The notes under the pieces were generated by a model. It was given only the letters and a program-made list of their open reading frames with translations. It did no database searches and was not told the DNA's origin. 64,000 bases of DNA, taken from NCBI GenBank assembly GCA_025336685.1, contig GCA_025336685.1_4717.1; one strand, 5' to 3'. Of the stretch, positions 21,161-54,574 are shown in pieces (within the stretch, counting starts at the first letter, position 1; each line of letters begins with the position of its first letter). Position numbers and translations under genes: made by a program. Origin of the DNA: Escherichia coli. Its GTDB lineage: Bacteria; Pseudomonadota; Gammaproteobacteria; Enterobacterales; Enterobacteriaceae.

Positions 21161-21178
21161 CTAGGTAATATAGCCGTG
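21161..21178 (+). promoter_or_regulatory. Promoter-like motif CTAGGTAATATAGCCGTG in a divergent intergenic region
   Basis: Shares the AGGTAATATAG core with the 21-mers at 8034 and 35790; lies upstream of the plus-strand gene 21283..22104. Confidence 0.35.
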
Positions 21179-21282
21179 AAAAAAGTTGGATTAAGTTAAA
21201 TACCGCAACCTAACTAATTTTATAGGCCTACAGCCTAAACCAATCATCTTCGAAATCATCATCTACGAAACAGGAACCTATC

Positions 21283-22104
21283 ATGGAAAAAGTATTTGTT
21301 TGTAAGCTGTTTACTAACGGCAATAGCCAACCAATGTATCTGACCGATCCGGTTCTGGGTAATCGGAACAGTACTGTATTCAAAGAAGCTATCGAATACG
21401 CTAAAAATAAAGCCGTGAGAACACTGACGTCCGATGACTGTATCAATGGTATCACGTGGGCAGAGTTATTAGGTGATGCTGTTAGACACTTCGTTCGGGA
21501 TGCAAGAAAACAGGAAATCAGCCTCACGACCATTGTCGTGCGCGAAAACGCAGAAATTTTATCAAACGTTTTAGTTGATTTTAATGACGTTTACGTGTTT
21601 AATCCAGAGAACACTTTTGAACAATACCTTGCCGCCCTGAACAAACAGCTCGGTAAAGATGTTCATCCCGAATTCGCCAAGTTAACGTATCAAGTACTTT
21701 TTGACGACGTCGATCCGAATACGAAGATCAGCACCCGCTTAAACTGCCAGATAAAGAAATACGGATCGGTTCTTGCTACAGCGACACCTACCATCGATGG
21801 CGGTTATGATATCGAATTGGATTCTCCATTAAAAGAACAAGAACCTACTGGGGTTCGGGCAATACATCATACCCTCGTCGTTAAATCCGATGGTTGTGAT
21901 GAACATTACGCTATGACAAACGATGAAAATAATCACCGTTTAAGTCAAGCGATCGGTGTTCTACGTTATACCGAACCAACCACTGTAGACGATTATACTT
22001 CGACAACAACGCACACCACGTGTTTCATTTTCATTTATCCAAATGAAAGTGTGTACATTACTGACTGCTACGGCAACACGGTAGATAGCTTACGTCGTTA
22101 TTAA
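21283..22104 (+). CDS. Hypothetical protein (273 aa)
   Basis: ORF followed by a canonical terminator. Confidence 0.5.
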   Translation: MEKVFVCKLFTNGNSQPMYLTDPVLGNRNSTVFKEAIEYAKNKAVRTLTSDDCINGITWAELLGDAVRHFVRDARKQEISLTTIVVRENAEILSNVLVDFNDVYVFNPENTFEQYLAALNKQLGKDVHPEFAKLTYQVLFDDVDPNTKISTRLNCQIKKYGSVLATATPTIDGGYDIELDSPLKEQEPTGVRAIHHTLVVKSDGCDEHYAMTNDENNHRLSQAIGVLRYTEPTTVDDYTSTTTHTTCFIFIYPNESVYITDCYGNTVDSLRRY

Positions 22105-22110
22105 TCATGG

Positions 22111-22138
22111 AGCCTGTCCTTCGGGGCAGGCTTTTATG
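22111..22138 (+). terminator. Rho-independent terminator (GCCTGTCC-TTCG-GGGCAGGC + TTTTAT)
   Basis: 8-bp GC-rich stem, TTCG tetraloop, T-tract; immediately after the stop of 21283..22104. Confidence 0.65.
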
Positions 22139-22205
22139 CTGTTAAATATCAGGAATAAGAATTAACAAAATAGGAAAATGGTGTGAATATAACACAAAGG
22201 AGGGA

Positions 22206-22328
22206 GATGATTATGTTACTCATTCTAATGGAGAGAGCATTGCTGGCGGGTATATGCGCATTCTCTGTTAAACACGCTGTTGCTATCATGACTGAAGAAA
22301 GGCGTAATACGCATAATGTATTACGCTG
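22206..22328 (+). CDS. Small hydrophobic protein (40 aa), below the ORF-track size cut-off
   Basis: ATG with strong Shine-Dalgarno AAGGAGGGAG upstream; fills the gap before 22335; encodes MIMLLILMERALLAGICAFSV... Confidence 0.35.
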
Positions 22329-22334
22329 AAAACA

Positions 22335-22748
22335 ATGTCTGCATTAGTGTATGACGAGAAATCGTCGAGGCCCCCGTCTTCACGAGGGCCAACACCTATG
22401 CGCGACTATTTACCATCTACGAAACAAAGGGTTATAAACATGAGCAATTTGAATGTTGAATTTACTTCAACAACGCCCGTCATGAATGGCGTTGGTACTG
22501 AAACTAAGATCGTATTAGAACCCATCCCGGGGTTACGTGATCTCGGTGATTTTTACCAACTGATGCCACGTATACGTAACGCCTTAAACAGTATCGATCT
22601 TGATTCTGATAAAGATTTCCAACACGATACAGAAAATACCGATCATGTGTTGCTACCATCAGGGATCGGAAAATTCACCTACACGCAAACATTGAAAGCC
22701 TCCGATGGTGAAATCCGTCGTTTTATTGTTGAAGTAGAAAGCGCATAA
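22335..22748 (+). CDS. Hypothetical protein (137 aa)
   Basis: ORF followed by a family hairpin at 22753..22784. Confidence 0.5.
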   Translation: MSALVYDEKSSRPPSSRGPTPMRDYLPSTKQRVINMSNLNVEFTSTTPVMNGVGTETKIVLEPIPGLRDLGDFYQLMPRIRNALNSIDLDSDKDFQHDTENTDHVLLPSGIGKFTYTQTLKASDGEIRRFIVEVESA

Positions 22749-22752
22749 AAAC

Positions 22753-22784
22753 CATCCTCCCAACCCGTAAGGGAAGGGAGGATG
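22753..22784. terminator. Family hairpin CATCCTCCCAACCC-GTAA-GGGAAGGGAGGATG at a convergent junction
   Basis: 14-nt arms with a single AA/AA mismatch; between convergent genes 22335..22748 (+) and 22802..23443 (-). Confidence 0.55.
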
Positions 22785-22801
22785 AAATATGCCGTTATAT
22801 G

Positions 22802-23443
22802 TTATTCAACAAATCCCGCGTTCAACAAATTGTCGTAAACACGATTAGCGACATCAACAGGAGAATGTGTGTTACTGGTGTCTATACACAACGTTTTCGC
22901 GTCGCCGAGATAGTCCATAAAATCCATGTAACGATAACGTCGTTTATTGAATGTCGCTTCATCGATGTTATCAAACATCTGATGTTTAGCGTGTCGAACA
23001 CGGAATCGCCTTAAATACGTAGGATAGTCAATATCCAGATAAACGTAGTAAGACGGCATGATAATCGACGGTAGGTTCGGCAACAACGCATCAAACAGCT
23101 TAACGTTGGCATCATTAACCTGATAAACGTACGTCGAAGCAATCGAACGATCGCTAAGCACAGTCTTCCCTTCGTTAAGGGCTGGATGAATCACCTTATT
23201 GAAGAGATGATTACGTTGCGACATCATCGCCAACAGTTCAGTTTCTGGATCGAATCTGTTCGTTGGCGTCTGATCTTCCAGGATAAGTTTACGAATCGCT
23301 TCTCCGTAGAGTGTACCACCGGGTTCACGTACGACGCAGACGTTGTTTAAACGACTGTGTAAAGACGAGATAACCGAACTCTTTCCTGAATAATCCAGAC
23401 CTTCAATAACGATATATTTATTACGAGACATTCCCCGCTCCAA
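22802..23443 (-). CDS. tmk: Thymidylate (dTMP) kinase
   Basis: N-terminal KYIVIEGLDYSGKSS P-loop, REPGGT and DRSI(A)S motifs match the bacterial Tmk pattern (KYIVIEGLEGAGKTT ... REPGGT ... DR). Confidence 0.75.
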   Translation of the reverse strand: MERGMSRNKYIVIEGLDYSGKSSVISSLHSRLNNVCVVREPGGTLYGEAIRKLILEDQTPTNRFDPETELLAMMSQRNHLFNKVIHPALNEGKTVLSDRSIASTYVYQVNDANVKLFDALLPNLPSIIMPSYYVYLDIDYPTYLRRFRVRHAKHQMFDNIDEATFNKRRYRYMDFMDYLGDAKTLCIDTSNTHSPVDVANRVYDNLLNAGFVE

Positions 23444-26106: not shown

Positions 26107-28626
26107 TTAAATAATCGTGACATGTTCGTTATACGTTTCAGGGAGAATGATGTTCGTTTTGTCGAGAACCATACACTCGGCTTTACGGAATGATGCGTGA
26201 TTGATAACATAGTGGCTGATGAACCACACTTGGCTTACACGGTGACCATCGACCAAACGACGAACAAAATCCATGGCATTAGATTGGTGCTGCGGATCAA
26301 ATGTTGATGCGAATTCATCCAGCATCAAGGGATAATCCGTAAACCCTTTGTAATGCATCATCGCGATGATAAACGCGATATTGATAATTTCCTTTTGCCC
26401 CTTACTCCCATAAACAATATCTTTTCGCGGTGTCGGATACTTCTCGGTTAGCAGCGGGAAACGATAATTCAATCCTTGCGCATCGATAGCACAAGGGAGT
26501 ATCTGAAGTTGGTATTCCCAAATACTCGCAATGATACCGTTCATGTATTCGACGAACGCGTTGATTGGACCAGCAATTGTTTCAGCAATCAGGCCGTTAG
26601 ATGGACTTAACTCATCCAGAACAAGTTGTGTGTAACTGAGTTGTTCTTCCACCTCTTTTTGCGTTGTTTCCAGCTGAGCCAAAAGCTGTTGGTCGGTTTT
26701 AGCTTCCTGTAACTGCTGTTCGACATGACTTATTCGTCGAACCGTATCAGACATCGCAGCGCGTAATGATTTCGTGTAGAGGTGTTGCAGATACTCCAAC
26801 CACAGTTGTGTTAACGCTTTATCGCTACTATCAGAACGCACCTGGTCTTCCATAATCGCCGTAATGGTTTCCAATCTACCTTCCGTTGCTGTGATGGCTT
26901 GGGTCAATCGTTCAACGGTCGTTAGCAACTCCGTCCTGTTCTTATAAAGCAGTTCTCGGCGTTGCTGTAATGGTTCAACATCAACAGCTTGTACACGTTC
27001 GAGCATGCCTTGAAGATGCTTCCGTTCTTGTTCGGCTTGGGTGTAACGCGCAAGCTTCTCAAATGCGAGCAGCCAATCATTAATGATTCCAATACTGCGA
27101 AACCCTAATCCGTTTTTACGTCCTTCTTCCAGCAGATTGTCCCACATGGGTTTAATGGCGTAATAATCTTTCGTCCAACGTGTTAACTGACGATGCTGCT
27201 CCATCCAAAGCGTATAACGCTGAACCTTCTCACTCAGCTCAGCTAACGATTTCTCTTGTTCTTCAACCCAAGCACGGCCCTTCTGAATACGTTGTTCGAT
27301 GCTTGCTTTGCTGGTCTTTTCTGTCTCACCAACATGAAAGCGATAATTGCATTTTGGGCAGCTGGTCTGGGGTTGATGGTTAAGGTGGTCAAGATGCGCT
27401 TCCAAGTCAGCTAACGCATGTTTCGCGTTACGCAAACGCATTCGTGCCGCCTCTTCCTCCTTGATGTAAGCTTCAGCATCGTAAACATGATAGGTGTTGT
27501 CGGTATCAATCCATTCTTGCAATAGTTCCGTTAACGGAGCCTGAACTTGCGTGAGCTGTTGTAAACAAACCGCGGCGTCCAGATTCATCGTTAAAAGCTC
27601 ACCTGGATGATCATGCTGGAGTTGTTCGTCCAAACGGGCAAGGCGGGCTTTAATCTGATCGATATCGCCTTCTCCAGACTGTTTCAACTGGTCAAGGATA
27701 TTATCGATACCCAACAGCTCGTCAACCTGACTTTCGAGTTTCGCATTCGCATTCGCGAGTTGCTCTCTTAGTTCAGCCAGATTCCGCTGTTCTTGTTGCG
27801 ATGTTCCTCCTTGGTAACGAACAACTGCACGAAGAAGCTCGCGATTAAAATGATGGGCACGTTGTGTGGATTCCAGAAGCTGTCGTTGATCGACATCGCT
27901 ATCGAATAACGGCAATCCCATCATCGCTTCGAGCGCTGAGCGTTGCTGCTTTAACTCTGCTTCCAATCCCTGGTGGTCGGTTCCAGTGTATTTCGCTTCA
28001 ATTCGCTGTGACGTTTCAACCAACTTATTCAATGTATGCTCATTCACCGCTTTCAGTGAACGTACTTGTTGCTTAACCACCTGAAACAACTCAAGCGCAT
28101 AATCGACGTTAACCGGACATATCTGTGTTAATCGTTCGCGTCGTTTCATCGGTCCCATTTCGGTGAACTGGTAAGCTGTTTCGTAACCTAACAACAAACG
28201 AATGGTGTCGTCATTAAGTTCGAAATGTTCTTCGATCAGTTTCCACTGGGCTGGTTGTGTACCACCACCGTTCAGGTTCTCGCTGTCGTTAACGTAGAAC
28301 TCGTGCTTAAACCCTTTTTCTAAACGACTGATAAGACGGTATTGCTTATTACGGTGTTCGCAGCGGTACTCGTAATACCCATCTTTATCAAAATCGGCGC
28401 GCTCGGGAACGGTTGGATACAGCAAAGGCAGTAGACTACTCTTACCCGAACCGTTACTACCTAAAATGAGTTGTACGGGATTATCTGGCCGGATGACCAG
28501 CTCCCGAATCATCCCGGTATCAAAACGATTGAATCCACGTAAGTGGAGATAGGTGCATCGCATGCTATGATAATCCTTCTTCGATACCTTCTGAACCCGT
28601 GGTTCAGAATGCGAAGCTGAAGCCAT
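26107..28626 (-). CDS. Rad50/SbcC-like SMC-type ATPase with coiled-coil and CxxC zinc hook
   Basis: Walker A GSNGSGKSS; long heptad-rich middle; CPKC hook-like motif; C-terminal signature-like SKGQKE, Walker B YPLMLDEFAS, H-loop ISHY. Confidence 0.7.
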   Translation of the reverse strand: MASASHSEPRVQKVSKKDYHSMRCTYLHLRGFNRFDTGMIRELVIRPDNPVQLILGSNGSGKSSLLPLLYPTVPERADFDKDGYYEYRCEHRNKQYRLISRLEKGFKHEFYVNDSENLNGGGTQPAQWKLIEEHFELNDDTIRLLLGYETAYQFTEMGPMKRRERLTQICPVNVDYALELFQVVKQQVRSLKAVNEHTLNKLVETSQRIEAKYTGTDHQGLEAELKQQRSALEAMMGLPLFDSDVDQRQLLESTQRAHHFNRELLRAVVRYQGGTSQQEQRNLAELREQLANANAKLESQVDELLGIDNILDQLKQSGEGDIDQIKARLARLDEQLQHDHPGELLTMNLDAAVCLQQLTQVQAPLTELLQEWIDTDNTYHVYDAEAYIKEEEAARMRLRNAKHALADLEAHLDHLNHQPQTSCPKCNYRFHVGETEKTSKASIEQRIQKGRAWVEEQEKSLAELSEKVQRYTLWMEQHRQLTRWTKDYYAIKPMWDNLLEEGRKNGLGFRSIGIINDWLLAFEKLARYTQAEQERKHLQGMLERVQAVDVEPLQQRRELLYKNRTELLTTVERLTQAITATEGRLETITAIMEDQVRSDSSDKALTQLWLEYLQHLYTKSLRAAMSDTVRRISHVEQQLQEAKTDQQLLAQLETTQKEVEEQLSYTQLVLDELSPSNGLIAETIAGPINAFVEYMNGIIASIWEYQLQILPCAIDAQGLNYRFPLLTEKYPTPRKDIVYGSKGQKEIINIAFIIAMMHYKGFTDYPLMLDEFASTFDPQHQSNAMDFVRRLVDGHRVSQVWFISHYVINHASFRKAECMVLDKTNIILPETYNEHVTII

Positions 28627-36460: not shown

Positions 36461-37354
36461 TTATTCGGAAACGTTGTAACCGAACACCGCTTTACCGTAG
36501 GTGTGAGTACCGTCAGCTAATGACAGCACCAGCACGTGGTTGTACGTAGCGTTAACACCCTTGTCGGTAGACTCGGTGGTAGCACCGTTGTAGACGAAAG
36601 TAGCCGTTTGCAGATTGGCTTTCAGCTCGGTGATGATCTCATCACCCACACCCGTCTGCTCTTTGATCAGCGTGGTCAGGTTACCCGCCAGGCTTTCATC
36701 GATCTTGGTTTCATCACTGGTAATAGCTTGTAAACCTGCGGTGTAGGTGCTGAAGTCTAACGGATAGGTTAACAGACGCGCTGAGGTCTTGGTACCATCG
36801 CCTTCATCAACGTAGGTTAACTTACCCAGGTTGGTAACCTTGATGATGTTAGCCAGATCCAGCGTGGTGTTATAAACTTTAACTTCAACGGAACCGTACC
36901 AAGCCAGCGAATCTTCTTTGGCCTGCAGGGTGATCGTCTGGATACCATGATCGTCGAAGGTAACCGGCGTAGCTAACGTATCGGCTTTGATGTCTTTCGT
37001 TTTATCTAAGAACTTCTCACCGGAAGGCGTGATCATACCGTAGCGTTGAGCTACAAGGTCAACCACGTCACCAATAGTGGTGTTAGCATTAACGTTAACG
37101 CGTACGGCGATCTTCTGGAACCACTTAGCCAGATCCAGACGATGATAGGTAACATCGCGGTCATTGAAGTAAGGTGTACCTTCACCAGGGCTAAGCGTTA
37201 AAGTTGCATCTGGAGCAGAATCGCTTTTGGATTTAAGAACGTATTTAAGGTCGGTGGGTTTGAAGTTGGCACCAGTGTCGGCGTTGAGTGTGTTAATCTC
37301 ATCAACGATAAGTTGCCAAGGTGTTTTTAAAGTAAGTGATACTTGAGCTGTCAT
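36461..37354 (-). CDS. Putative virion structural protein, paralogue family C (YxDR ... AW(T/Y)GSV motifs)
   Basis: Shares motifs with 37498..38040, 48415..49320, 50237..51088 and 51099..52046; codon usage biased towards preferred codons. Confidence 0.55.
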   Translation of the reverse strand: MTAQVSLTLKTPWQLIVDEINTLNADTGANFKPTDLKYVLKSKSDSAPDATLTLSPGEGTPYFNDRDVTYHRLDLAKWFQKIAVRVNVNANTTIGDVVDLVAQRYGMITPSGEKFLDKTKDIKADTLATPVTFDDHGIQTITLQAKEDSLAWYGSVEVKVYNTTLDLANIIKVTNLGKLTYVDEGDGTKTSARLLTYPLDFSTYTAGLQAITSDETKIDESLAGNLTTLIKEQTGVGDEIITELKANLQTATFVYNGATTESTDKGVNATYNHVLVLSLADGTHTYGKAVFGYNVSE

Positions 37355-37497
37355 TTTCTACCTCTATGGTTGTTACATCACTCTCAAAAGATGTAAGTGT
37401 TTACAGAAATCAATATATTTTATATTAAATGTGAATATTATGGAGAACGACTCCGACTCTCCTTTTCGACCATCAAAAAATCAGAGGATACATAATC

Positions 37498-38040
37498 ATG
37501 GCCTTAGACTTTAACAAAGCAGCGAAATCCCTTCTGCTTGATCTGATCAACACCAAAGCAACCCGCGCACTGTCCGAAGAAGAACTGCAGTTCGGTACTC
37601 CGGCGGCATCTTCCGAAAATGCTAAGAACACCGTTATCCAGCTGAATGCTGCGGCTGAAGCAGAAAACCTGCAGGGTACTCAGCAGTTCTACTACGATCG
37701 TCTGGCTCTGTCTGACGTTTTCGCTGATGTAACCAGCGATGTTACTTTCGAACTGCCGCACGGTACTGACAGCATTAAGGCTTCTGAGCTGGTAAGCAAG
37801 CTGGTCACCAAGTTCGGTCTGGCTTCCCTGACCGGTGAAATCAATGAAGAAACCTTCCAGCTGTCCGCAGGTACTGTTGGTCAGGTAACCCTGACTGCGA
37901 TCGAGGGTGGTATGGTATATACCGGTACTCTGCAGGTTGCCCTGACCTACGCAGCAGCACCGAAAGACAATCTGGCAACCGTTCTGGCGGATAACGTAGC
38001 TGATGGCTTCGTGAAACCTGAAGTTGCTGTCGTTGGCTAA
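37498..38040 (+). CDS. Small putative major virion/decoration protein, paralogue family C, with strongly biased codon usage
   Basis: FYYDRLALSDVF and GMVYTGTLQVAL motifs; heavy use of CTG, GGT, ACC, GCT, GAA codons; SD AGAGGA upstream; apparently monocistronic. Confidence 0.6.
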   Translation: MALDFNKAAKSLLLDLINTKATRALSEEELQFGTPAASSENAKNTVIQLNAAAEAENLQGTQQFYYDRLALSDVFADVTSDVTFELPHGTDSIKASELVSKLVTKFGLASLTGEINEETFQLSAGTVGQVTLTAIEGGMVYTGTLQVALTYAAAPKDNLATVLADNVADGFVKPEVAVVG

Positions 38041-38239
38041 TAAACACATAGAGCAATAGTATGGGTTTTGTACAGCTCGGCTATTGCTCTTCTACAATTT
38101 GGTTGTAACAATCTGCGTGGTTGCACGCTTATCTTTCTCATTGAACGCTTCGTATGAAGCGTGGTGTTGAAAGGGTTGTGGATCTCCTCAAGCGGCCAGG
38201 GACCCAGACCAACCTGAATAAACACAAACACATGTTAAG

Positions 38240-41159: not shown

Positions 41160-43754
41160 TTATAACGTGACTGTACCTAATTTGGTTGTCTTATTGAGAT
41201 TGATGACAGAGATCTGGGTATCGCTGGTCGTAATCGTTCCGATGTTAACGCGCTGCCCTTTATCATCTTCTTGCTTGTGGATGGTTAACTCCAATTCTAA
41301 CTGGTTACCGTTAGGAACAACGGAAACGTACCACGTTTTATTACCTGGCGAACTATTATAGTCTTTTAGGTTATAATGGCCTTTAGGTAAAGTCATGGCC
41401 TTACCAGCAAACAAGCAAGCGATGTCTTCGTTGATGTAGATATCGTAACCGGAAGCAGCAACGACCGTAGAAACCATGTAGACATGTTTGACGGTACCTG
41501 CGAGGTATTCGGCTACGCTTGGCCCATATGCTCTGAATACCTGTCCGCCATTGGATAAACGGTACGCTTCCCCAAGGTCGACGTACCCCAGACCCCATAC
41601 CGGATGGACGTTGTAACGACGTCCGCTGCTGGCCAAATACTCATAAAGGTCATCTACCGATAACCCAACCCACGCACCACTGGCGTTCTTAGCACCACGG
41701 AATTGAAAATCGTTTGCGTTTCCTGGAGTAGCAACGCGCACGGACATCGCCCCGGCGATTAACCAACCATCAGCGCATTTACGATACCCTAATGGTCCCC
41801 ACGCCCCCAGAGTGTTGTCAATGTTATTGATTTGGTCCCGAAGCGTGTAAGTTACCGTTGTGATGACCCCCGTTACGGTAATGTTCCCTTCCCGAGCGCT
41901 GGTCGTCACTTCAGACGTCATGATAGCCGCCTTCCTGGAGACAGGATCGTACACCGATATGAACATCAAGCAGGGGGCCCCTGTGGACGCTGGAGGAACC
42001 ACGATAGAGCCGCGTATAACGGAGTATCTCTCAAGCTTCGGCGACGTGTAGGTATCCCAACAAAGTTTGGCCGCTCTGTCGAGTTCTGCCTGCGTGATGC
42101 TTATCGATGCCCCCTTTAAGGCTAACGTATCAGGGTCGACCTCAACCCTGCTGCTTAATCTCCCTTCCTGTAGCCAGCTGCCAGTCACTATCGTCTGGTC
42201 GTCGCTCATGTGAATTGTCGCGAAACGTTCGCTCACTGAACCGCCTACGTGGACGCGACTGGTTGGCGGGAATCCCATCACATCGACCACGCTGTTCTTA
42301 TAGCGATAACTCAAATCCCAATCAGCGGTTATTAACCGCTTTTCGAAATTGCTCTGACCCCCTGGGATGCGGGATAAGACATAGACCTTGTTCTTCGCCG
42401 TGAAGCCAACGAAGCCGTGTGGACCACAGGACCCAACAACGCGGTCCTTGATGTTAATCCAGTTCCCCGCCTCGTACGCGGATATTGGGGTGAGTTTTGC
42501 AAGTTCGTCGAAGACATTACCAGCGTAGTCACCAATGCGATACGATCGAACCATCGGCGAGGCCAGGTTATCATTCACACAGCTGGTAACCAGACCGTCC
42601 TCGCGAATGACCATGTTCCCGGTAAGGTTGGCCCCACCCCATACCCAGAATCCGTCTTTATAATCACGGTCACGAGTTGACATCGTACAAGGGCCACGAA
42701 AGGACACCGAACCATCGGAGTTCACTTGTAATGACGGTGTTCCAGCATTGGGACTTAATGTCCATTGCTTCGTATCCAGGTTCAAATCGACGTACCAGAT
42801 CGTTGTCCCCTGATCGGCGATATTCACGGTACTGTTAGTGTACCATGCCGTCGTGCAGTAGATTCGCGCAATGTTACCTTTTACAACAGCGTAATTTCTA
42901 ACACCCGCACGAATAGGGACAAGCGTCGTTAATTGACTAGGGTACGCTGTATGGTTTAACACTTCCCAGAAAAGAATATGGTCGAGGTTGGTTTTCGTCG
43001 TTCCCTCAAAAATCTTTCCACTAAACCCGGTTTCTTTGGTGAACTGTACGGCCGCACCATTTTTAATGTCCGATAACATACAGGTATGTACATCGAGCCC
43101 GTTTTTCCCTTCATACGCCCACCAGACTAACAGGTACACTTTGTTTTTGTAGACGAACGTACTACAGCGCGCCATGCTGTCGGTAATACCCTCTACCGAC
43201 CCGGTACACATGGCGGCGACATGCTTCTCTACGTTGAATGTGCCGTTAGTCAGAACGATGTAGGGCTGTGTGTTCTCGTCGTTTGCGTCCATCGCGACAC
43301 CCATCATCACGCCGTGGTTATGACACCAGACTGATTGTGGGATTTTAGGTAGTGCTGTAGGGTTGTACTGGCGACTGGTACCTATGGCGGTATCGAGCAG
43401 CCCTTCACCATTGTTTTTACAGATAGCGTAATACACCCCGTTTTTCATGCTGTTGGATGCAGAGCGAAGGATGGAAACACTCCCGTCTGCTTCCTGACAG
43501 ATTCCGTAGGTACGACGTTCGGTCATGGCTATCGCGCCATCAGCTGACCCTTCGATGGCGAGAGGGAAGTAACTTTGATCGCCAATTTGTTCGATATCGG
43601 TTACGTCAATATCAATGTACTTTTCCATCTCGGTGTTGAACTCTGCGGTGCTGTACGCGCCGAGATCGCCAGCCTTTAACCCTGTTGGATTGCTTCGACT
43701 AGCGATACGTTCGGTAACGCTGGTCACCAGTTCGCTAAATTTTTTCATTGCCAT
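41160..43754 (-). CDS. Large tail-associated protein (864 aa), possible tail spike or baseplate component
   Basis: Location between the tail fibre genes; no catalytic motif recognised. Confidence 0.5.
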   Translation of the reverse strand: MAMKKFSELVTSVTERIASRSNPTGLKAGDLGAYSTAEFNTEMEKYIDIDVTDIEQIGDQSYFPLAIEGSADGAIAMTERRTYGICQEADGSVSILRSASNSMKNGVYYAICKNNGEGLLDTAIGTSRQYNPTALPKIPQSVWCHNHGVMMGVAMDANDENTQPYIVLTNGTFNVEKHVAAMCTGSVEGITDSMARCSTFVYKNKVYLLVWWAYEGKNGLDVHTCMLSDIKNGAAVQFTKETGFSGKIFEGTTKTNLDHILFWEVLNHTAYPSQLTTLVPIRAGVRNYAVVKGNIARIYCTTAWYTNSTVNIADQGTTIWYVDLNLDTKQWTLSPNAGTPSLQVNSDGSVSFRGPCTMSTRDRDYKDGFWVWGGANLTGNMVIREDGLVTSCVNDNLASPMVRSYRIGDYAGNVFDELAKLTPISAYEAGNWINIKDRVVGSCGPHGFVGFTAKNKVYVLSRIPGGQSNFEKRLITADWDLSYRYKNSVVDVMGFPPTSRVHVGGSVSERFATIHMSDDQTIVTGSWLQEGRLSSRVEVDPDTLALKGASISITQAELDRAAKLCWDTYTSPKLERYSVIRGSIVVPPASTGAPCLMFISVYDPVSRKAAIMTSEVTTSAREGNITVTGVITTVTYTLRDQINNIDNTLGAWGPLGYRKCADGWLIAGAMSVRVATPGNANDFQFRGAKNASGAWVGLSVDDLYEYLASSGRRYNVHPVWGLGYVDLGEAYRLSNGGQVFRAYGPSVAEYLAGTVKHVYMVSTVVAASGYDIYINEDIACLFAGKAMTLPKGHYNLKDYNSSPGNKTWYVSVVPNGNQLELELTIHKQEDDKGQRVNIGTITTSDTQISVINLNKTTKLGTVTL

Positions 43755-47082: not shown

Positions 47083-48363
47083 ATGTATACATTGGTAAAA
47101 ACTTACGGATTACCCGTAGGTTCTGGCACGGCCTGGACAGCACTTGAGGCGGGTGAAAGTGTCCTGAGTACGTTGTTCTCAGCGTATCAAAAACTCAAGA
47201 TCCAGGTTCATGAAAGCTATGCTGACCAGCAACAAGTTATTGATCTGTACACATTTCAATCCGAGCTTCAAAACAGCAATGACACGCTCAATGCGTGGTT
47301 GAAAGCGAAATCGGATGCACATACCAACCTTCGAGGACAGCCTGGTGAGCTGTCGATTAAAACCCACAAGCTTTATTGCCATGACGTTATTACCGTAGGC
47401 TTTCTCCCTAAAGTCGGTAATAGTGGTTATCATCCGAGCAATGCGATCCCTGAGTCGGAACGTACCGATATCCTGTTGACGAAAGCGAATACGAATTACG
47501 AAAATATCGGCAAACATTGCTTGTTCACCGTAGGCGGTTATATTCATCCTCATGTTTACGGTAAAGACGTTGGCGTCTATATCCAGGGTGGGTTCGAGAC
47601 AGCACAGCGTAGCCAAGAAAACGATATCGGCATGATTGATTTTAGCCGTATCGGGAGTTTGGAAATCCACGCCATCACAGAAGAGATGATTGCTGATTCC
47701 ACGAAGCTCTTGCCGTATAAGGACGAGATGTACTTACGGCTACCACGTAAGGTCGCCGAAGATGAAACCGTTGCGCTGGTGTTCGGGGGATATCTACACC
47801 TTCTTGACGATTGTTACACGATCGTTAGTGACACGACGGCAAAAATAAACTGCAGAAACATGTTTCTGTATGAAAGATACTTCCGCTCCCGCAAATACCT
47901 TGATTTAACGTCTCTTGGTATTCTGTTGAACGAAGAAGACCCGCAGTCCGATATTGTTGCCAATCGTTTACTGTCTGATAAGACTTTAAAAGCATGGGTG
48001 ACGCATCCCTGCAGTTTCTGGGTGTATATCAAAGCAACATCGATTCAGGTTACACAAGAACCTTTACCACGAAGTGGCGTACCAGGACAATATTTCTTAG
48101 GTAAGAAACCGGAAGGACTGATTCGAGCCGATCTCGGTGAGTTACCGGCCTACGTGCAGACCTATGAAAAACCGTTATGGGTACTTCACTCACGCTGGGG
48201 GCTTCGTAAGAACATGTTGTTTGAAAACACATTGTACAAACATACACGCGTTAAGCGGCTTAACGATACGCCTTATCTTCACCAGGTCTGGTTGAAAACG
48301 CATGCGACGTTGCAGACAGTACATAAGCTCGAATTGATCGATTCCAGTCAGAAAAACAAATAA
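47083..48363 (+). CDS. Hypothetical protein (426 aa), likely tail-associated
   Basis: Divergent from the fibre gene; followed by a family hairpin. Confidence 0.5.
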   Translation: MYTLVKTYGLPVGSGTAWTALEAGESVLSTLFSAYQKLKIQVHESYADQQQVIDLYTFQSELQNSNDTLNAWLKAKSDAHTNLRGQPGELSIKTHKLYCHDVITVGFLPKVGNSGYHPSNAIPESERTDILLTKANTNYENIGKHCLFTVGGYIHPHVYGKDVGVYIQGGFETAQRSQENDIGMIDFSRIGSLEIHAITEEMIADSTKLLPYKDEMYLRLPRKVAEDETVALVFGGYLHLLDDCYTIVSDTTAKINCRNMFLYERYFRSRKYLDLTSLGILLNEEDPQSDIVANRLLSDKTLKAWVTHPCSFWVYIKATSIQVTQEPLPRSGVPGQYFLGKKPEGLIRADLGELPAYVQTYEKPLWVLHSRWGLRKNMLFENTLYKHTRVKRLNDTPYLHQVWLKTHATLQTVHKLELIDSSQKNK

Positions 48364-48373
48364 ACAAACATAA

Positions 48374-48405
48374 CCCTCCTCCTTCCCTTACGGGTTGGAG
48401 GAGGG
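48374..48405. terminator. Family hairpin CCCTCCTCCTTCCC-TTAC-GGGTTGGAGGAGGG at a convergent junction
   Basis: Arms identical to the 18601 copy; between 47083..48363 (+) and 48415..49320 (-). Confidence 0.55.
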
Positions 48406-48414
48406 AATATGCTG

Positions 48415-49320
48415 TTATGCCACGTATAACGTTAGATAACCGTCGATGAGCGTATTCATAACACTGAGTTGAAGTACAACAGCTTTACGAGCGTCTGTAC
48501 GTACACCAAATGGTAGTGTTTTGAAATGCTCTGGATCGGCTATTACTCTCGCATTCTGCAAGTTGAGCGGTCCAGGCGTTGCCGACAATACCCAGCGATC
48601 GTTGGCCGTAAGACCATCGATCTCTTCAGAGAGACCCAATTGCAGCATGTTCATTTCTGCAATTAGCGCCTCTGATTGCATATCACCTGAGGTTAACGTA
48701 TACCCATCAGTAAGTGACGCTAGAACATCATCAGACATGAACCAGTTGTACGAAACAATAGCGCCCGGGAGTTTATCACTATCTCGATCGATGAGATAAT
48801 TCAACCCAGCCAACATATTGTTGCGAATGAGGTTGTTGAGGTCGTTATGTCCTGAAGTTAACTCAACAAGTAATTGACCAACCCATACTTGGTTACCAGG
48901 TTTAGGTGTTATCGCAACATGTATCGGTGATTTGGATTTATCCAGATCCGCGTCGACAATCTCGGTTTTATTGAGAAGGATACCGTACGTTGATGCTAAG
49001 ACAGGTAATATCTCAGAGACCTTGGTTAGTGTATCTAAGGTTTCGATCTCGATGGGCCAGCGGTGCTGTCCGCCAGGCCAAATACCCAGTTTACCAAGAT
49101 CGACGCGGTTATAATAGATGTCGACAGAGTTCACCAGCCCTGAACCCGGTTGGGGATGCACGGTTAACTTGCTGTTACGCTTGTACCCTGTGCTTTCAGA
49201 AGCCTCACCGATAACCAGTTTATCCAGCGTTACGCCTCGAGCGTCGAAATCGCTATGCTTTCGAATCAGCCGAAAGAGGATTTCTTTCGATTCTAACCCT
49301 AGGATTTCACTGTACTCCAT
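48415..49320 (-). CDS. Putative structural protein, paralogue family C
   Basis: IYYNRVDLGKLGIW and QVWVGQLLVEL motifs align with the other family members. Confidence 0.5.
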   Translation of the reverse strand: MEYSEILGLESKEILFRLIRKHSDFDARGVTLDKLVIGEASESTGYKRNSKLTVHPQPGSGLVNSVDIYYNRVDLGKLGIWPGGQHRWPIEIETLDTLTKVSEILPVLASTYGILLNKTEIVDADLDKSKSPIHVAITPKPGNQVWVGQLLVELTSGHNDLNNLIRNNMLAGLNYLIDRDSDKLPGAIVSYNWFMSDDVLASLTDGYTLTSGDMQSEALIAEMNMLQLGLSEEIDGLTANDRWVLSATPGPLNLQNARVIADPEHFKTLPFGVRTDARKAVVLQLSVMNTLIDGYLTLYVA

Positions 49321-49335
49321 TTAACACCCCTTAGG

Positions 49336-49545
49336 TTACGGTAGGATTTCTGCGCCCGTCGGGCCTGCCTTACGAGCTTCCAACGCACCAAGGTCGTATT
49401 TCAACGTCAGCGTATCGTTGGTGGTAAATAGGTTGTGGTAAGTCGAAATCAGATCGGTAACCTGTGCGCCTACGATCTCGTTCATGTCGAAGGCAGAACC
49501 TTGACCATCATCAGCACGAACGATTTTGTCGCCAGCAGAGACCAT
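49336..49545 (-). CDS. Small hypothetical protein (69 aa)
   Basis: Fills an otherwise empty gap between two minus-strand genes. Confidence 0.35.
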   Translation of the reverse strand: MVSAGDKIVRADDGQGSAFDMNEIVGAQVTDLISTYHNLFTTNDTLTLKYDLGALEARKAGPTGAEILP

Positions 49546-49614
49546 CCCAATTTCAGAAATAACCGCGCAGTACTCTTCAATTACCCGGAGAGTTTAGCCA
49601 CATTGAGATATTCG

Positions 49615-50220
49615 TTAATATCCTGATGGTGTCCAGACCAAAGAGACTCCAGCTATAATCGTAGTACTTCCGGTCGCTACCAGAATTCCTGTTGTTGGAA
49701 TATCCGGTCGGGGCGGGTTGAGGTTCTTGTCGGTCGGATGCCATTCGATAGTCTGAGCAACACCATCGATGTACTTGGTATATCGCATGGAGCGGACAAC
49801 GTTATCGAAATCGATGCGACGACCGTAATAACAGATGTACTTTTTACCGTTTTCCAGCGTCTCAATACGACGTAACCCAAATCTAGCACGTTCGTCCGTG
49901 GTCAAATCGTTACCAACTTCACGCATCACGAAAGGTTTGATTTTCCATGGTGAAAGATCGCTTGCTTCGTGAGCGATCGGCATCGAGGAAGGGATGCCGT
50001 TAGCGTTGCGGATGAATTCGTGACCTTGGTTGCCGATACAGAAGTAACGTACAGCAGGATTACCCTCGGGGTAAATCTTTGATTGAATCTGAAGCTTTTC
50101 GTTCAAGGTGCTGTGTTCTTCCCACGCATGAGGAAGACCGAGCGTAAGGTTCGTTTGTACTTGACCGCCGATAATCGTACGGACGATACGATCGGTAGCA
50201 CGGATTTGTGTAGAAGCCAT
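49615..50220 (-). CDS. Hypothetical protein (201 aa)
   Basis: ORF in the co-directional structural block. Confidence 0.5.
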   Translation of the reverse strand: MASTQIRATDRIVRTIIGGQVQTNLTLGLPHAWEEHSTLNEKLQIQSKIYPEGNPAVRYFCIGNQGHEFIRNANGIPSSMPIAHEASDLSPWKIKPFVMREVGNDLTTDERARFGLRRIETLENGKKYICYYGRRIDFDNVVRSMRYTKYIDGVAQTIEWHPTDKNLNPPRPDIPTTGILVATGSTTIIAGVSLVWTPSGY

Positions 50221-50236
50221 GTCTTTTCCTATTTAA

Positions 50237-51088
50237 TCAGTTATATTGCATCAACAGGATACCGCCGTAGTTCGTGCAGTAATCTTGGCTAAGCGTAACG
50301 ATAACAGCGTTAGCGAACGCAGGGTTAACAGGATAACCCTGTGCGATAAGTTCTGTTGTTTTACCGGTTGCGAGTACGGTAGCCCCGTAAAGGTTGTTTT
50401 CGTCTTCACGACCGTTATAAACCCATGGGGTTGGCGCAACGTTGTTGAATAAGCTAACCATTGCGCTTAGGTTACCACCAACCTTTAACCCGGCAAGATC
50501 GGAACGGATTGCTGTGCAGTCTATAGCGTAACTGTAGACCAACGCTTGGATACGATTTGCGGTGTAGTACGGGAAATTGAGACCGGCCATCACCGTGGTC
50601 TTCATCATCCCCGCAATATCGCGCGCGCTATCGAGGAGGTAGAATGTAACACTTCCCGTCCAAGCCAATCCGGTTGTTTTCAATTCTACGACATGAGGGA
50701 ATGGGTATTCATTCCCTCGAACAATCGGAGAATCGACGCAGCTATCCCGATCGATAACGATTCCGTACGTCGATTGGATCAGAGGGATAAGATCGTGCGT
50801 TGTTTTAACCCCGGCGTCGATAGCAAGCTTCGGTTCCATTCCCAAGAAGAAGTCTTGGATAGGGATACGATCGTACCACACGTAGCTGCTTTCACGGTAT
50901 TGTGCTGGCGTTACTGTTGCCGAAGGCGATACCTTAGCGCGGGTGTTCCGTTTATACGCATGGTTTCCGTTTTCAGCAGCATCCGTGATCTCAAGCGCAT
51001 CGAAGTTAAAGTCGAAGTCAGGATTGGCAGCCTGAATAAGTTCGGCGACCAGTACTTTAGGACTTTTGTTTAACAATTTCTGACTCAT
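50237..51088 (-). CDS. Putative structural protein, paralogue family C
   Basis: VWYDRIPIQDFF, LAWTGSV and DYCTNYGG motifs; closest to 51099..52046. Confidence 0.55.
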   Translation of the reverse strand: MSQKLLNKSPKVLVAELIQAANPDFDFNFDALEITDAAENGNHAYKRNTRAKVSPSATVTPAQYRESSYVWYDRIPIQDFFLGMEPKLAIDAGVKTTHDLIPLIQSTYGIVIDRDSCVDSPIVRGNEYPFPHVVELKTTGLAWTGSVTFYLLDSARDIAGMMKTTVMAGLNFPYYTANRIQALVYSYAIDCTAIRSDLAGLKVGGNLSAMVSLFNNVAPTPWVYNGREDENNLYGATVLATGKTTELIAQGYPVNPAFANAVIVTLSQDYCTNYGGILLMQYN

Positions 51089-51098
51089 TGTTTATTCC

Positions 51099-52046
51099 TT
51101 AGCCTTGTTCTTCTGGAGAACGACCCTGGAGGCTTGCGGTATGTCCGTCGACGTTGTAATAGAAAATCAATGGACCGCCGACAGCAGTACAGTAGTTTTC
51201 ATCCAGACTGATCTCGATACCGTATTGGTAACCTGCTCGTGCTGGAATACGTCCGCCTAACTCGCCGTTGAAAGCCACTTTAGCGTTATACAGGTTATAC
51301 GGTGCGATGTTGTCGTCTAATACCCAACGATCGGCGGTCATTTCAGCCAGAAGATCGGCGACCACCACATCGCTAATGACCGTACCTGTTACCAGCGAAG
51401 CCAGCAACTCACCGTAATCGGAAGTATCACGACTGTAGCTGTAGATTTCACCGCTAGCGCGTACGCCTTGTCCGAAGAACTTAAGACCATCAAGCTCTTT
51501 GATTGCGATAATATCATCAAGATTCGGTACACGCGATTTCATCAAGATACGAACACTTCCCGTCCAAGCCAGGCAATCAGATACGACACGGAGCAATTGT
51601 CCGTTAACGGTATCCCAGTTAAGTTCGTCGTTGACAATTTCTTCTGCGGTAAGGCCGAGACCGAAACGTTCTTTGATGATAGGCCAGATATCACGCATCT
51701 TGGTGGCATCTGGTGCATCGATAAGAATAGGTGCTACGTTACGTAGATACGCACCGATGTTAATACGATCGTAATACAGCGTCGTCGAACCTTCGTAATC
51801 GTCTAACTCGGTAAGCTTAGCGGTTGCCGTTGCCGTAATCTGGGTATCGCGCTCGTAGGCGCTTTGGTTGGTGGTTGGTGTCCCTAAAACCAATAATTCA
51901 GGGGTTAGAACATGTTCTCCGTTCTGAGGTGGGTTATCGTGGTTGATAAGACCATACACGAGATCGGATGAGGGTAAAGAGACGTCGACCGGGTAAAGTT
52001 CGGTGTCGTCAATAGTTGTTACCGTATCACTCACGGTGACCTCCAC
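51099..52046 (-). CDS. Putative structural protein, paralogue family C
   Basis: LYYDRINIGAY, LAWTGSV and NYCTAVGG motifs. Confidence 0.55.
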   Translation of the reverse strand: MEVTVSDTVTTIDDTELYPVDVSLPSSDLVYGLINHDNPPQNGEHVLTPELLVLGTPTTNQSAYERDTQITATATAKLTELDDYEGSTTLYYDRINIGAYLRNVAPILIDAPDATKMRDIWPIIKERFGLGLTAEEIVNDELNWDTVNGQLLRVVSDCLAWTGSVRILMKSRVPNLDDIIAIKELDGLKFFGQGVRASGEIYSYSRDTSDYGELLASLVTGTVISDVVVADLLAEMTADRWVLDDNIAPYNLYNAKVAFNGELGGRIPARAGYQYGIEISLDENYCTAVGGPLIFYYNVDGHTASLQGRSPEEQG

Positions 52047-52093
52047 GCCAGGAATTAATTAAAAAAGACTTTACGATTTGCTGCGCTATCACG

Positions 52094-54574
52094 TTAAGCG
52101 TCCTCGATAGGCAAAGGTTTAACAATCAAACGATTGAGCGGATTCGATAGACGCATACTGACAGGCTTATACGCAACATGATTCGTCTCACTTAGAACCG
52201 CTGACCTGAAACGACCATTCACCTGTTTGTAGATTGGATCTATCCAAAGACCTTGAAGGTCGCGCTTACGGAAACGTTGTTCGAACGGTTTGATCGGGTT
52301 TATGGTCAGCCCATGCAGCGACTCCGACAGTAAACGCTCACGAAGGTCGCGTGGTGCCCGACCCGGGAACGGTGCAAGCCACAAACCATCGAGTGGGTTT
52401 TTACGGAAACGTAACGAGATGGGATCACTGATGACTTGTGCCCAATATTGCGTACTGAATCGAACCGTTTGGGTATTCTCGTAACCGCTACAGTCACACC
52501 AGGTTGGTTTCGGAGGTGCTTCCAAACTTTCAACCACCGATTCGCGCCAGTTCGTCATCGGGTTGTTATCATGTACGAATTTGATAACTTCCGTAGCCTG
52601 GTTATCCGTATCATGAACGTTTGCCTGTGCCCAGTCTTCCCACAGTTCTTCACTACCACTTACTAAACTCGAACCAAGACGAACGGCGATTTTGTTTAGT
52701 GGTTTGATTGGATCACTGTTGATTGTCTGGATAAAATGGATGGTGTAACTACTCAATGTCTTAAGCAGCTGCAGCATTCCGTATTGAATATCCTTAAGAC
52801 TGGTGACATCTTCCAAATCTTGACCGGTGGCCTTTGTGAAGATATCGAGAGCCAGAATTCCCGCCTCTTCTTGACTGATTGCGTCAAGCTCCCAATCCAT
52901 CGCTAAGAACCATTCCTTGTAAAGCTGCCCAATACCGAAGTCGACACCAACATCCATGTAAAAGTTTTCAACGATGGCTTCAGCCATACCTCGAGCTTGA
53001 TAATGCTCTTGGAGCTGGTACATGAACTGATGACGACGCCAGCCCTGGTAGATCTCGGTAACGACGTTGAGAAACTCTTCAGTACTGACGACCGGACGCA
53101 ATGTTACTTGCTTATCCAAACACCACCAGATCAGTTTATCGGGAATGATAGCGGGATCGGTAATGCTACGGAGATGGTCGAATGTCGGTAGCGTTAACAC
53201 CCTGACATGGTTAGCATGGATCTTAGGTACTTCAATCAGCGTCATGCCCATCGAATAGTTCAGCAAATACAAGAACAGCTTGTATGCATCTTTCATCGAC
53301 ATCGTCATGGTATCACCCGTCACCGGGTTGGTTGTCGTTAACCGTGACTGGTACATGCCTATAGCGCTAAGATGAATCCATTCGTTCAGTAGGAAATCAT
53401 ACTTAGGATACAATTCACTGTCTGTAAGGTCTTCCGCTTCACTTTCCAACACCTTGGTCGTTAAGGTGTTGTTGTCATGCATCGACATTTTCTCTATCGT
53501 GCGGTTAAGCTCGGTATAATACTCCGCTTCGTTATCCCGCGCTAAAGGGAACTGTTGCTGCATCACGGTGGTGACCTTACGCCTTACCGTGCCGTTGCCG
53601 ACGATCTCTTGAAGGTTAAGTGGTTTACGCTCCATGTAAACGGTAGGTTTTAACGTCTGAGGTATCTCGGAAGCGTCTTGTTTGATCGAGAACGCACCGA
53701 TTGGAATTCCACGTTCGGTTAATACCTTTTGAATGAGCTTATCGTAGTTTTCCGTTCTGCCCATGTTTCTTTCAACGTAAGCAATGTTACGATAAAACCA
53801 GAGCATTTGAGATTCGGTCATGTATCGCTCGAATCGATCAAGACCTTGATGGCTTGCCAGATAACTCCAGATATGGAAGCTATGGGCATAATGGGTATGA
53901 CAGTTTTCCCAACGAATACCTTTTATCATCTCAGGTATTTGTGTGAATAGAATGGCGTATAACGCAGGCCAATGAAGCATATCGACGCTTTCATACGCCG
54001 GGTGTTCCCAACGTCTAAAGTAATCATCGATTTCTTGCTGTAAGCGTGGAATAAGATTGGCCTCGCGCGATTCAACCTCTCGTGTATCGTACCAGAGAAT
54101 CTCATGATTGCGTGCCGCAATTGCTTTCTCGATATCGATGGGGTTAAGGATACCCAAGATCAACATACGTTGTTCTGGATACCGCGCAATTAAACGATTG
54201 AAATAATCTCCGCCGTACGCGTATTCCCTTGCTGTCATGCGATGTCGTAACATGTTTTCCTTGGTGAACTCGATCTCTTCGAGCGTATCCAGGGAATTTA
54301 CGGTCATCATTGTCTGACAAGGATGATACTCGCCAGCGAGATTCATGTAGTATAACCACGTGCGTGGGTCGTCCCCGACGGCCATCTGGTAGACTTCGGA
54401 AACCTTGAGGTTTAACCGTTCTGCCGTGATGTCGCTTTTAATAATCAGGGTGTCCGTTAGACGCTGCACGCTTTCCGAATAAAGCTGATAGTCAGTGTTG
54501 GACACGATCGGTCCTCCAAGGAGCCAGTGTAAATGAACGATATAAATAAAGGGCGCGTCGCCCTCGAACGTCAA
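52094..54574 (-). CDS. Large hypothetical protein (up to 826 aa) with C-terminal tandem peptide repeats; 5' end uncertain
   Basis: The track start at 54574 is a TTG overlapping the divergent gene; first in-frame ATG is near 54385. C-terminus has 2-3 repeats of (D/N)PI...RFRK..L.GLW. Confidence 0.5.
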   Translation of the reverse strand: MTFEGDAPFIYIVHLHWLLGGPIVSNTDYQLYSESVQRLTDTLIIKSDITAERLNLKVSEVYQMAVGDDPRTWLYYMNLAGEYHPCQTMMTVNSLDTLEEIEFTKENMLRHRMTAREYAYGGDYFNRLIARYPEQRMLILGILNPIDIEKAIAARNHEILWYDTREVESREANLIPRLQQEIDDYFRRWEHPAYESVDMLHWPALYAILFTQIPEMIKGIRWENCHTHYAHSFHIWSYLASHQGLDRFERYMTESQMLWFYRNIAYVERNMGRTENYDKLIQKVLTERGIPIGAFSIKQDASEIPQTLKPTVYMERKPLNLQEIVGNGTVRRKVTTVMQQQFPLARDNEAEYYTELNRTIEKMSMHDNNTLTTKVLESEAEDLTDSELYPKYDFLLNEWIHLSAIGMYQSRLTTTNPVTGDTMTMSMKDAYKLFLYLLNYSMGMTLIEVPKIHANHVRVLTLPTFDHLRSITDPAIIPDKLIWWCLDKQVTLRPVVSTEEFLNVVTEIYQGWRRHQFMYQLQEHYQARGMAEAIVENFYMDVGVDFGIGQLYKEWFLAMDWELDAISQEEAGILALDIFTKATGQDLEDVTSLKDIQYGMLQLLKTLSSYTIHFIQTINSDPIKPLNKIAVRLGSSLVSGSEELWEDWAQANVHDTDNQATEVIKFVHDNNPMTNWRESVVESLEAPPKPTWCDCSGYENTQTVRFSTQYWAQVISDPISLRFRKNPLDGLWLAPFPGRAPRDLRERLLSESLHGLTINPIKPFEQRFRKRDLQGLWIDPIYKQVNGRFRSAVLSETNHVAYKPVSMRLSNPLNRLIVKPLPIEDA

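Follow-up and report, generated by a model that had tools for sequence, protein, structure and literature searches.

Five DUF7941 virion proteins of a Goslar-like Escherichia jumbo phage, probably polymerising filament or adaptor subunits

The 64,000-nucleotide stretch of DNA analysed here (termed the window), from an Escherichia coli assembly (GCA_025336685.1, contig GCA_025336685.1_4717.1), encodes five paralogous virion structural proteins of the DUF7941 family (Pfam PF25613), which corresponds to "Paralog family B" of phage SPN3US. The five are one-to-one orthologues of gp22, gp23, gp31, gp33 and gp34 of phage vB_EcoM_Goslar, with amino acid (aa) identities of 88.9-99%. Goslar is an Escherichia jumbo phage of 237 kb, PhiKZ-like and nucleus-forming. 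The five proteins probably act as polymerising filament or adaptor subunits, in which low-copy members encoded in a baseplate operon would serve as baseplate anchors and the gp22 and gp23 orthologues would provide the bulk polymer. Family membership, fold, synteny and purifying selection were established on the window, and virion presence, copy number and filament formation were carried over from the literature by orthology. An earlier note, made from the sequence alone, had proposed a five-member paralogous family scattered through the tail region; this was a correct rediscovery of a family already published, and the window by itself adds nothing new to it. The five genes are as follows, where dN/dS is the ratio of nonsynonymous to synonymous substitution rates against Goslar.

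36461..37354, minus strand: orthologue of the abundant filament-forming subunit gp22; 297 aa, 90.6% aa identity; full-length DUF7941 with N-terminal domain, linker and C-terminal domain (PF25613 E-value 2.2e-51); dN/dS 0.20
37498..38040, plus strand: orthologue of gp23, the most abundant member; 180 aa, 88.9% identity; short DUF7941 with N-terminal domain and linker only
48415..49320, minus strand: orthologue of gp31, the gene that ends the baseplate operon; 301 aa, 93% identity; full-length DUF7941 (Pfam E 3.6e-53); dN/dS 0.18
50237..51088, minus strand: orthologue of gp33; 283 aa, 96.5% identity; full-length DUF7941 (Pfam E 3.6e-47; phrog_1037 E 3e-59); dN/dS 0.087
51099..52034, minus strand: orthologue of gp34, the gene directly downstream of that for the wedge; 311 aa, 99% identity; full-length DUF7941; the mechanically called frame extends to 52046

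All five open reading frames (ORFs) are present at the coordinates given in the earlier note, and the pairwise alignment that it had suggested as a check bears the family out. Most pairs gave significant BLASTP alignments, ranging from 50237 against 51099 at the top (74 bits, E 6e-18) to 37498 against 51099 at the low end of the significant pairs (40 bits, E 6e-7); the only failing pair, 37498 against 50237 (E 1.9), is connected via other members. Each ORF independently matched PF25613, with 175.4, 73.9, 181.3, 161.6 and 214.0 bits at a gathering threshold of 27 bits (E-values from 2e-20 to 4e-63), and each also matched the "virion structural protein" groups phrog_1037/phrog_2935. Together, the Pfam, PHROG and BLASTP statistics rule out chance motif matches. 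The shared motifs YxDR, AWTGSV and NYCT.GG named by the note are real: in the five-way alignment Y92 and R94 (YxDR motif) are invariant, as are G129 and G163, the latter in AWTGSV, and the long forms also carry the C-terminal motif YCT..GG...YN. When all six frames of the 64 kb were searched with a profile made from the five, exactly these five were recovered and no sixth member at E<10. Against the Goslar orthologues, dN/dS is 0.055-0.35 for the five, which indicates purifying selection; as these ratios are well below 1, the ORFs are real protein-coding genes. The gp23 orthologue overlaps a minus-strand ORF (37504-38049, 181 aa), which is antisense to it and has a Cys/Arg-rich, low-complexity translation typical of a shadow ORF. 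It was rejected as a gene, having no family match, whereas the plus-strand ORF matches DUF7941 and has a model with a predicted local distance difference test score (pLDDT) of 91.

The DUF7941 layout comprises an α/β N-terminal domain of ~150 residues followed by a linker, to which a C-terminal domain of ~100 residues is added in the four long forms. The AlphaFold2 model of the protein encoded at 51099-52046 (gp34 orthologue) has a mean pLDDT of 82, with two confident domains at residues ~20-170 and 200-300, a linker at residues 170-200 (pLDDT 65-72) and disordered termini on both sides. The 180-residue gp23 orthologue consists of the N-terminal domain and a tail (pLDDT 90.7), and covers positions 4-173 of the 276-position Pfam profile. 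The N-terminal domain shares the fold of PhiKZ gp127 (PDB 9XQD), the sole experimentally placed member of the family. Moreover, a linker motif, D/N-L-x3-I-x4-L-x2-L, is kept throughout the aligned members, the short gp23-type form among them, with a gap weight of zero. This conservation fits a docking peptide and is consistent with head-to-tail polymerisation.

The same domain content bears on the two functions suggested by the earlier note, namely that the five might build a baseplate from paralogous wedges or be multivalent receptor-binding adhesins themselves. Both suggestions start from the location of the genes in the tail and baseplate region, and the family has indeed been tied to host recognition in the Goslar preprint. 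Neither, however, agrees with the Pfam content, the wedge comparisons or the PhiKZ homology of the neighbouring genes. DUF7941 spans the full length of each protein and is the sole Pfam match above threshold, apart from a few chance sub-threshold matches (E~0.09) on two of them; no receptor-binding domain (carbohydrate-binding, GP38, leucine-rich repeat (LRR), β-helix or depolymerase) was found in the five at Pfam E<=0.1. None of the five resembles wedge proteins (T4 gp6/gp7/gp53-like; PhiKZ gp87/gp128) in sequence or fold, and the wedge is instead the neighbouring 803-aa protein. We thus regard it as highly improbable that the five are wedge subunits or adhesins in their own right. Such heads do occur on other members of the family: Goslar gp86, gp92 and gp161 bear adhesin, carbohydrate-binding or LRR extensions (bioRxiv 10.64898/2026.04.21.720040). 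As a separate observation, SPN3US gp155 (725 aa, encoded at positions 21170-23347 of the SPN3US stretch examined) combines a DUF7941 N-terminal domain (E 2e-23) with a GP38 tail-fibre adhesin domain (PF05268, E 7e-18).

The transfer of published data to the five proteins relies on the close relation of the window to Goslar. Positions 48000-52500 align to Goslar with 94.2% nucleotide identity over 4.5 kb, which was the sole match in the phage collection; window position 48000 corresponds to Goslar position 27372, and the gene order and strands from gp21 to gp40 are the same in both. The window nevertheless represents an isolate or variant distinct from Goslar. A 236-kb contig filed as a Shigella flexneri assembly (GCA_039902845.1) is closer, with 99.4% identity to the window over 5.9 kb. 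The five genes agree with those of Goslar in order, strand, length and Pfam domain; they differ in that the bulk subunits have diverged by ~10% in protein sequence and that the spoke gene (gp32 orthologue) of the window is disrupted.

The Goslar cryo-electron microscopy preprint (Basu et al., April 2026) names the DUF7941 family and lists ten members, including gp22, gp23, gp31, gp33 and gp34 (bioRxiv 10.64898/2026.04.21.720040). Label-free quantitative mass spectrometry gave ~2,140 (2,144) copies per virion for gp23 and ~580 (577) for gp22, and Table S4 of the same work gives ~112 for gp33, ~27 for gp34 and ~8.5 for gp31. Purified recombinant gp22 formed filaments and bundles hundreds of nanometres long in negative-stain electron microscopy, head-to-tail dimers were predicted by AlphaFold 3, and a baseplate-anchored "fibre cloud" for host capture was proposed (bioRxiv 10.64898/2026.04.21.720040). 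In the structural atlas of PhiKZ, gp127 sits at the distal end of five gp139 dimers, which form a band across the outer baseplate (Nat Commun 2026, PMC13250141).

Applied to the window, these data suggest the following arrangement. In the published model, the linker and C-terminal domain of one subunit would dock on its successor's N-terminal domain, and this docking would give head-to-tail homo- or hetero-polymers in the form of long flexible filaments. The gp34, gp33 and gp31 orthologues (~27, 112 and 8 copies in Goslar) may act as baseplate-proximal anchors or adaptors around the spoke gene, where they would occupy the position of PhiKZ gp127, which caps the spoke at its distal end. The bulk polymer would come from the gp22 and gp23 orthologues (~580 and 2,140 copies), encoded beside the endolysin gene, and family members elsewhere in the genome would add sugar-binding, hydrolase or LRR heads. 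We infer this division of labour between anchors and bulk from the gene positions and the Goslar copy numbers, and a role in host capture may likewise be suggested.

The genomic context of the five genes comprises two loci. The first is a minus-strand operon in the order wedge (gp35), gp34, gp33, spoke (gp32, DUF7208) and gp31, with intergenic gaps of 10-16 nucleotides; the second is the divergent gp22/gp23 pair beside the endolysin gene. The surrounding features are listed below.

37355-37497: AT-rich spacer of 143 bp between the divergent gp22 and gp23 orthologues, with the core TATATTTTATATTAAATG
47083..48363, plus strand: orthologue of gp30 and of PhiKZ gp130, which belongs to the "star lobe" of the outer peripheral baseplate (phmmer against PhiKZ gp130, E 1.7e-27)
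48374..48405, minus strand: intrinsic terminator, a hairpin of CCCTCCTCC...GGAGGAGGG with a T-rich tail after it, read directly from the sequence
49336..50220, minus strand: orthologue of gp32 and of PhiKZ gp139, the DUF7208 baseplate spoke filament protein, which is not a DUF7941 member (homology to PhiKZ gp139, E 3e-32)
52094..54505, minus strand: orthologue of gp35 and of PhiKZ gp128, the true baseplate wedge, 803 aa and first gene of the operon (phmmer against PhiKZ gp128, E 8e-114; 97.9% identity to Goslar gp35)

The location in a tail module, as claimed by the earlier note, thus holds, given that the neighbours are homologues of PhiKZ gp128, gp139 and gp130 together with a Peptidase_S74 fibre protein. 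The wedge assignment of PhiKZ gp128 comes from cryo-electron microscopy (PMC13250141). The gp31 orthologue lies directly downstream of the spoke gene, and the terminator hairpin, which matches a Goslar-annotated terminator at the equivalent position, closes the gp35-gp34-gp33-gp32-gp31 operon. A GGAGG ribosome-binding site (52043-52039) stands 5 nucleotides ahead of the GTG at 52034, and Goslar is annotated with this same start; the gp34 orthologue most likely starts at this codon and not at the GTG at 52046. The spacer between the gp22 and gp23 orthologues presumably holds two late promoters of a phage polymerase. A sigma-70 promoter scan of this spacer and of the baseplate operon found no more sites than expected by chance, a null result that is to be expected because these phages use their own RNA polymerases. 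In terms of annotation, five genes labelled "hypothetical" or "virion structural" are settled as DUF7941 proteins, putative subunits of filaments or adaptors, and the 48.4-54.5 kb operon as a peripheral-baseplate module.

The arrangement of the two loci is retained in related phages. The order of portal, wedge, one or more DUF7941 genes and DUF7208 spoke is common to Goslar, Erwinia phage Deimos-Minion (gp6-gp11) and SPN3US (gp81-gp84). PhiKZ retains the portal-wedge-DUF7941 part (gp129-gp126), with its spoke gene gp139 elsewhere and not adjacent to gp126/gp127, whereas the spoke gene of the window is flanked by family members. PhiKZ further differs in having ~3 members (gp126, gp127 and gp143) compared to ten in Goslar, and the sequence identity to gp127, of which the N-terminal domain alone was modelled, is only ~15%. 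At the second locus, a short DUF7941 gene adjoins the endolysin gene in both Goslar and PhiKZ (gp143 beside the endolysin gp144), and in SPN3US the array gp138-155 lies upstream of the endolysin gp156.

Three of the five genes also differ from most neighbours in evolutionary rate. In a single pairwise comparison against Goslar, the dN/dS values were 0.35 for gp23, 0.31 for gp21 (function unassigned), 0.20 for gp22 and 0.18 for gp31, compared to 0.015-0.09 for most neighbouring structural and polymerase genes (34.9-62.3 kb). The bulk subunits and gp31 thus evolve 3-7x faster at the protein level than most of their neighbours. For the bulk subunits, this higher rate is in keeping with polymer subunits that are exposed and loosely constrained.

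SPN3US has an expanded set of paralogues. Its family B has 17-20 members (gp83, gp138-154, gp160 and gp237; Thomas 2016, PMC5105663; Ali 2017, PMC5694885) and was described as perhaps the largest set of paralogues in the genome of any single phage; gp141 (32.6 kDa) and gp160 (18.5 kDa) are abundant, with >300 copies each (PMC5105663, PMC5694885). We found that Pfam DUF7941 matches gp141 (E 1e-84), gp160 (E 7e-11), gp83 (E 5e-14) and also gp155, and that gp138-145, 148, 151, 154 and 155 match a profile built from Goslar-type sequences, whereas gp146, 147, 149, 150, 152 and 153 are too diverged to match Pfam DUF7941. Similar to the gp22/gp23 pair, SPN3US has one abundant member of ~32 kDa and one of ~18 kDa (gp141 and gp160); the endolysin-proximal locus, however, has grown to a tandem array of ~18 genes, compared to two genes in the window. 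A further difference is that proteomics of tailless mutants led to a head assignment for the SPN3US family.

These proteomic data, together with several features of the Goslar and PhiKZ work, weigh against the baseplate-anchored filaments that we favour. Tailless heads of the SPN3US tail-tube amber mutant 255(am107), after purification on two caesium chloride (CsCl) gradients, kept gp83, gp138-154 and gp160 at 1.1-1.7x the wild-type level (Scheuch 2023, PMC10052503 Table S2), with gp141 at 1.44x, gp160 at 1.23x and gp83 at 1.20x; gp155, a DUF7941 protein by our scan that is unmarked as family B in that table, stood at 0.89x. The sheath, the tube, the wedge gp82 and the spoke gp84 dropped to <=0.07x on the same heads, and gp83, although encoded between the wedge and spoke genes, stayed with them (PMC10052503). 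In Goslar, the baseplate maps are without DUF7941 density, filaments were seen for recombinant gp22 alone, and the preparation held co-purifying material of the nucleus shell (chimallin) and of PhuZ (bioRxiv 10.64898/2026.04.21.720040); given this carry-over, some of the copies counted as "virion" could come from contaminating filaments. In PhiKZ, the placement of gp127 is a docked AlphaFold model in a 4.4 Å map (PMC13250141). Finally, gene position points to gp34 as the counterpart of gp127, but by sequence gp127 is nearest to the gp22 and gp33 orthologues, its best phmmer matches among the five. As the two disagree, the search for a sequence orthologue of gp127 among the five gave an ambiguous assignment.

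The retention of family members on tailless heads raises an alternative, that the abundant gp22/gp23-type copies belong to the head, either packed into the capsid and leaving it along with the DNA, or on the exterior of the capsid or neck, with a few paralogues such as PhiKZ gp127 on the baseplate. A second independent tailless mutant of SPN3US agrees with the first, and the >300 copies each of gp141 and gp160 were estimated per capsid (PMC5694885, PMC5105663). In a buoyant-density gradient, free protein filaments would not be expected at the position of DNA-filled heads, which argues for a physical association with the head in SPN3US. In addition, the family-B protein gp237 follows the tail (0.06x), so the family can split between locations (PMC10052503); the SPN3US data are unmentioned in the Goslar preprint. 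Against a head location, the Goslar cryo-electron microscopy maps of the capsid give no density to DUF7941 proteins (bioRxiv 10.64898/2026.04.21.720040), and the family is absent from the prohead-protease-cleaved proteins listed in PMC5694885, unlike classical internal proteins. The adhesin, carbohydrate-binding and LRR domains on paralogues make sense outside the particle and not inside it, the sole solved placement, that of PhiKZ gp127, is on the baseplate (PMC13250141), and three of the five genes lie in the baseplate operon. On balance, we consider a head location of the abundant copies a serious rival, although a rather unlikely one.

The self-assembly of gp22 invites another explanation, in which the abundant members are intracellular filaments that co-purify or become tangled with particles, and their copy numbers are artefacts of the preparation. 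Recombinant gp22 polymerises alone over hundreds of nanometres, chimallin and PhuZ were present in the same Goslar preparation without being virion parts, and stickiness would explain the findings on both SPN3US tailless heads and Goslar whole virions. The step and buoyant-density CsCl gradients used for SPN3US, however, should band free filaments away from DNA-filled heads, and the levels of the family members were reproducible, with coefficients of variation of mostly 2-19% (PMC10052503). A symmetric reconstruction places PhiKZ gp127 at a defined site (PMC13250141), and the genes are embedded in conserved structural operons. This explanation is accordingly quite improbable.

Alongside the filament and adaptor reading that we favour, a combined arrangement is put forward tentatively, in which gp22/gp23-type bulk polymers lie on or in the head and low-copy gp31, gp33 and gp34 at the spoke tips; the published baseplate "fibre cloud" would then be incomplete or wrong for the bulk. 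If so, one fold would serve two distinct virion compartments, with a function such as a capsid-borne host-capture net or an ejected scaffold. With >2,500 copies together, equal to ~60 MDa (computed from the Goslar copies and subunit masses), DUF7941 proteins rank with the most abundant components of the chimallivirus particle. When the SPN3US tailless-head data are set beside the Goslar and PhiKZ structures, both their location and their role in infection are still disputed.

Another paralogous virion family is encoded in the tail region of these phages, namely PhiKZ gp131-gp135, or "Paralog family C" of SPN3US, whose members share an N-terminal attachment module and have variable C-termini. 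Its fold, a helical bundle with a β-propeller, is unrelated to DUF7941, and its large, low-copy proteins form hetero-hexameric fibres. None of the five ORFs matches this family.

The earlier note had further attributed the five paralogues to repeated duplication of a structural unit and regarded such families as commoner in large phages, and it was right on both counts. A tblastn search placed the family in 124 phage records, all of them jumbo phages of 210-300 kb, with 1-9 matching places per genome and hosts that include Erwinia, Salmonella, Serratia, Klebsiella, Escherichia, Proteus, Cronobacter, Vibrio and Pseudomonas. Judged from these sequence matches, DUF7941 is so far known only from PhiKZ-like (Chimalliviridae-type) jumbo phages. 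An exhaustive profile search yielded 2,568 cluster representatives (50% identity) at E<=1e-3; the majority are 265-310 aa long, one class is 170-195 aa, and the longer proteins carry the module N-terminal to extra domains. Matches of 190-207 aa, tried as gp23-type proteins, proved to be truncated or mis-assembled gp22 fragments, and a separate gp23 search was used instead.

Many unlabelled, near-complete Goslar-like genomes (contigs of 231-250 kb) are present in public E. coli, Salmonella enterica and Shigella flexneri assemblies and in metagenomes. The exact sequence of the gp31 orthologue occurs in 67 index blocks of public sequence data, and the exact protein is encoded on many public contigs of 230-240 kb with the same gene order. 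In sequence data the Goslar-like lineage is far commoner than one would gather from its single phage record in GenBank.

The spoke gene of the window (gp32 orthologue, 49336-50220, minus strand) is split into ORFs of 201 aa and 69 aa by six small indels at 49567-49669, with a net length change of 0; about nine substitutions are clustered with them out to 49678, so that ~110 nucleotides are affected in all. The two ORFs match Pfam PF23838 at profile positions 1-194 and 227-287, respectively. Goslar and five public contigs carry an unbroken gene (294 aa), one of these contigs being 99.4% identical to the window, and the truncated 201-aa product is not on record in public data. The split is most simply read as a local error of sequencing or assembly, the alternative being a genuinely broken essential gene. 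The PhiKZ counterpart gp139 is the structural partner on which gp127 sits (PMC13250141).

A second local difference from Goslar concerns the gp26 orthologue (41160-43754, minus strand, 864 aa), which shares only 52% protein identity with its Goslar counterpart, compared to 84-98% for its neighbours (98% for gp25 and 84% for gp27). It has no Pfam match, and its central 1.9 kb (41480-43415) gives no blastn alignment to Goslar. Judged from this pattern of identity, the gp26 orthologue is probably a mosaic or an exchanged segment, and may be a determinant of host range.

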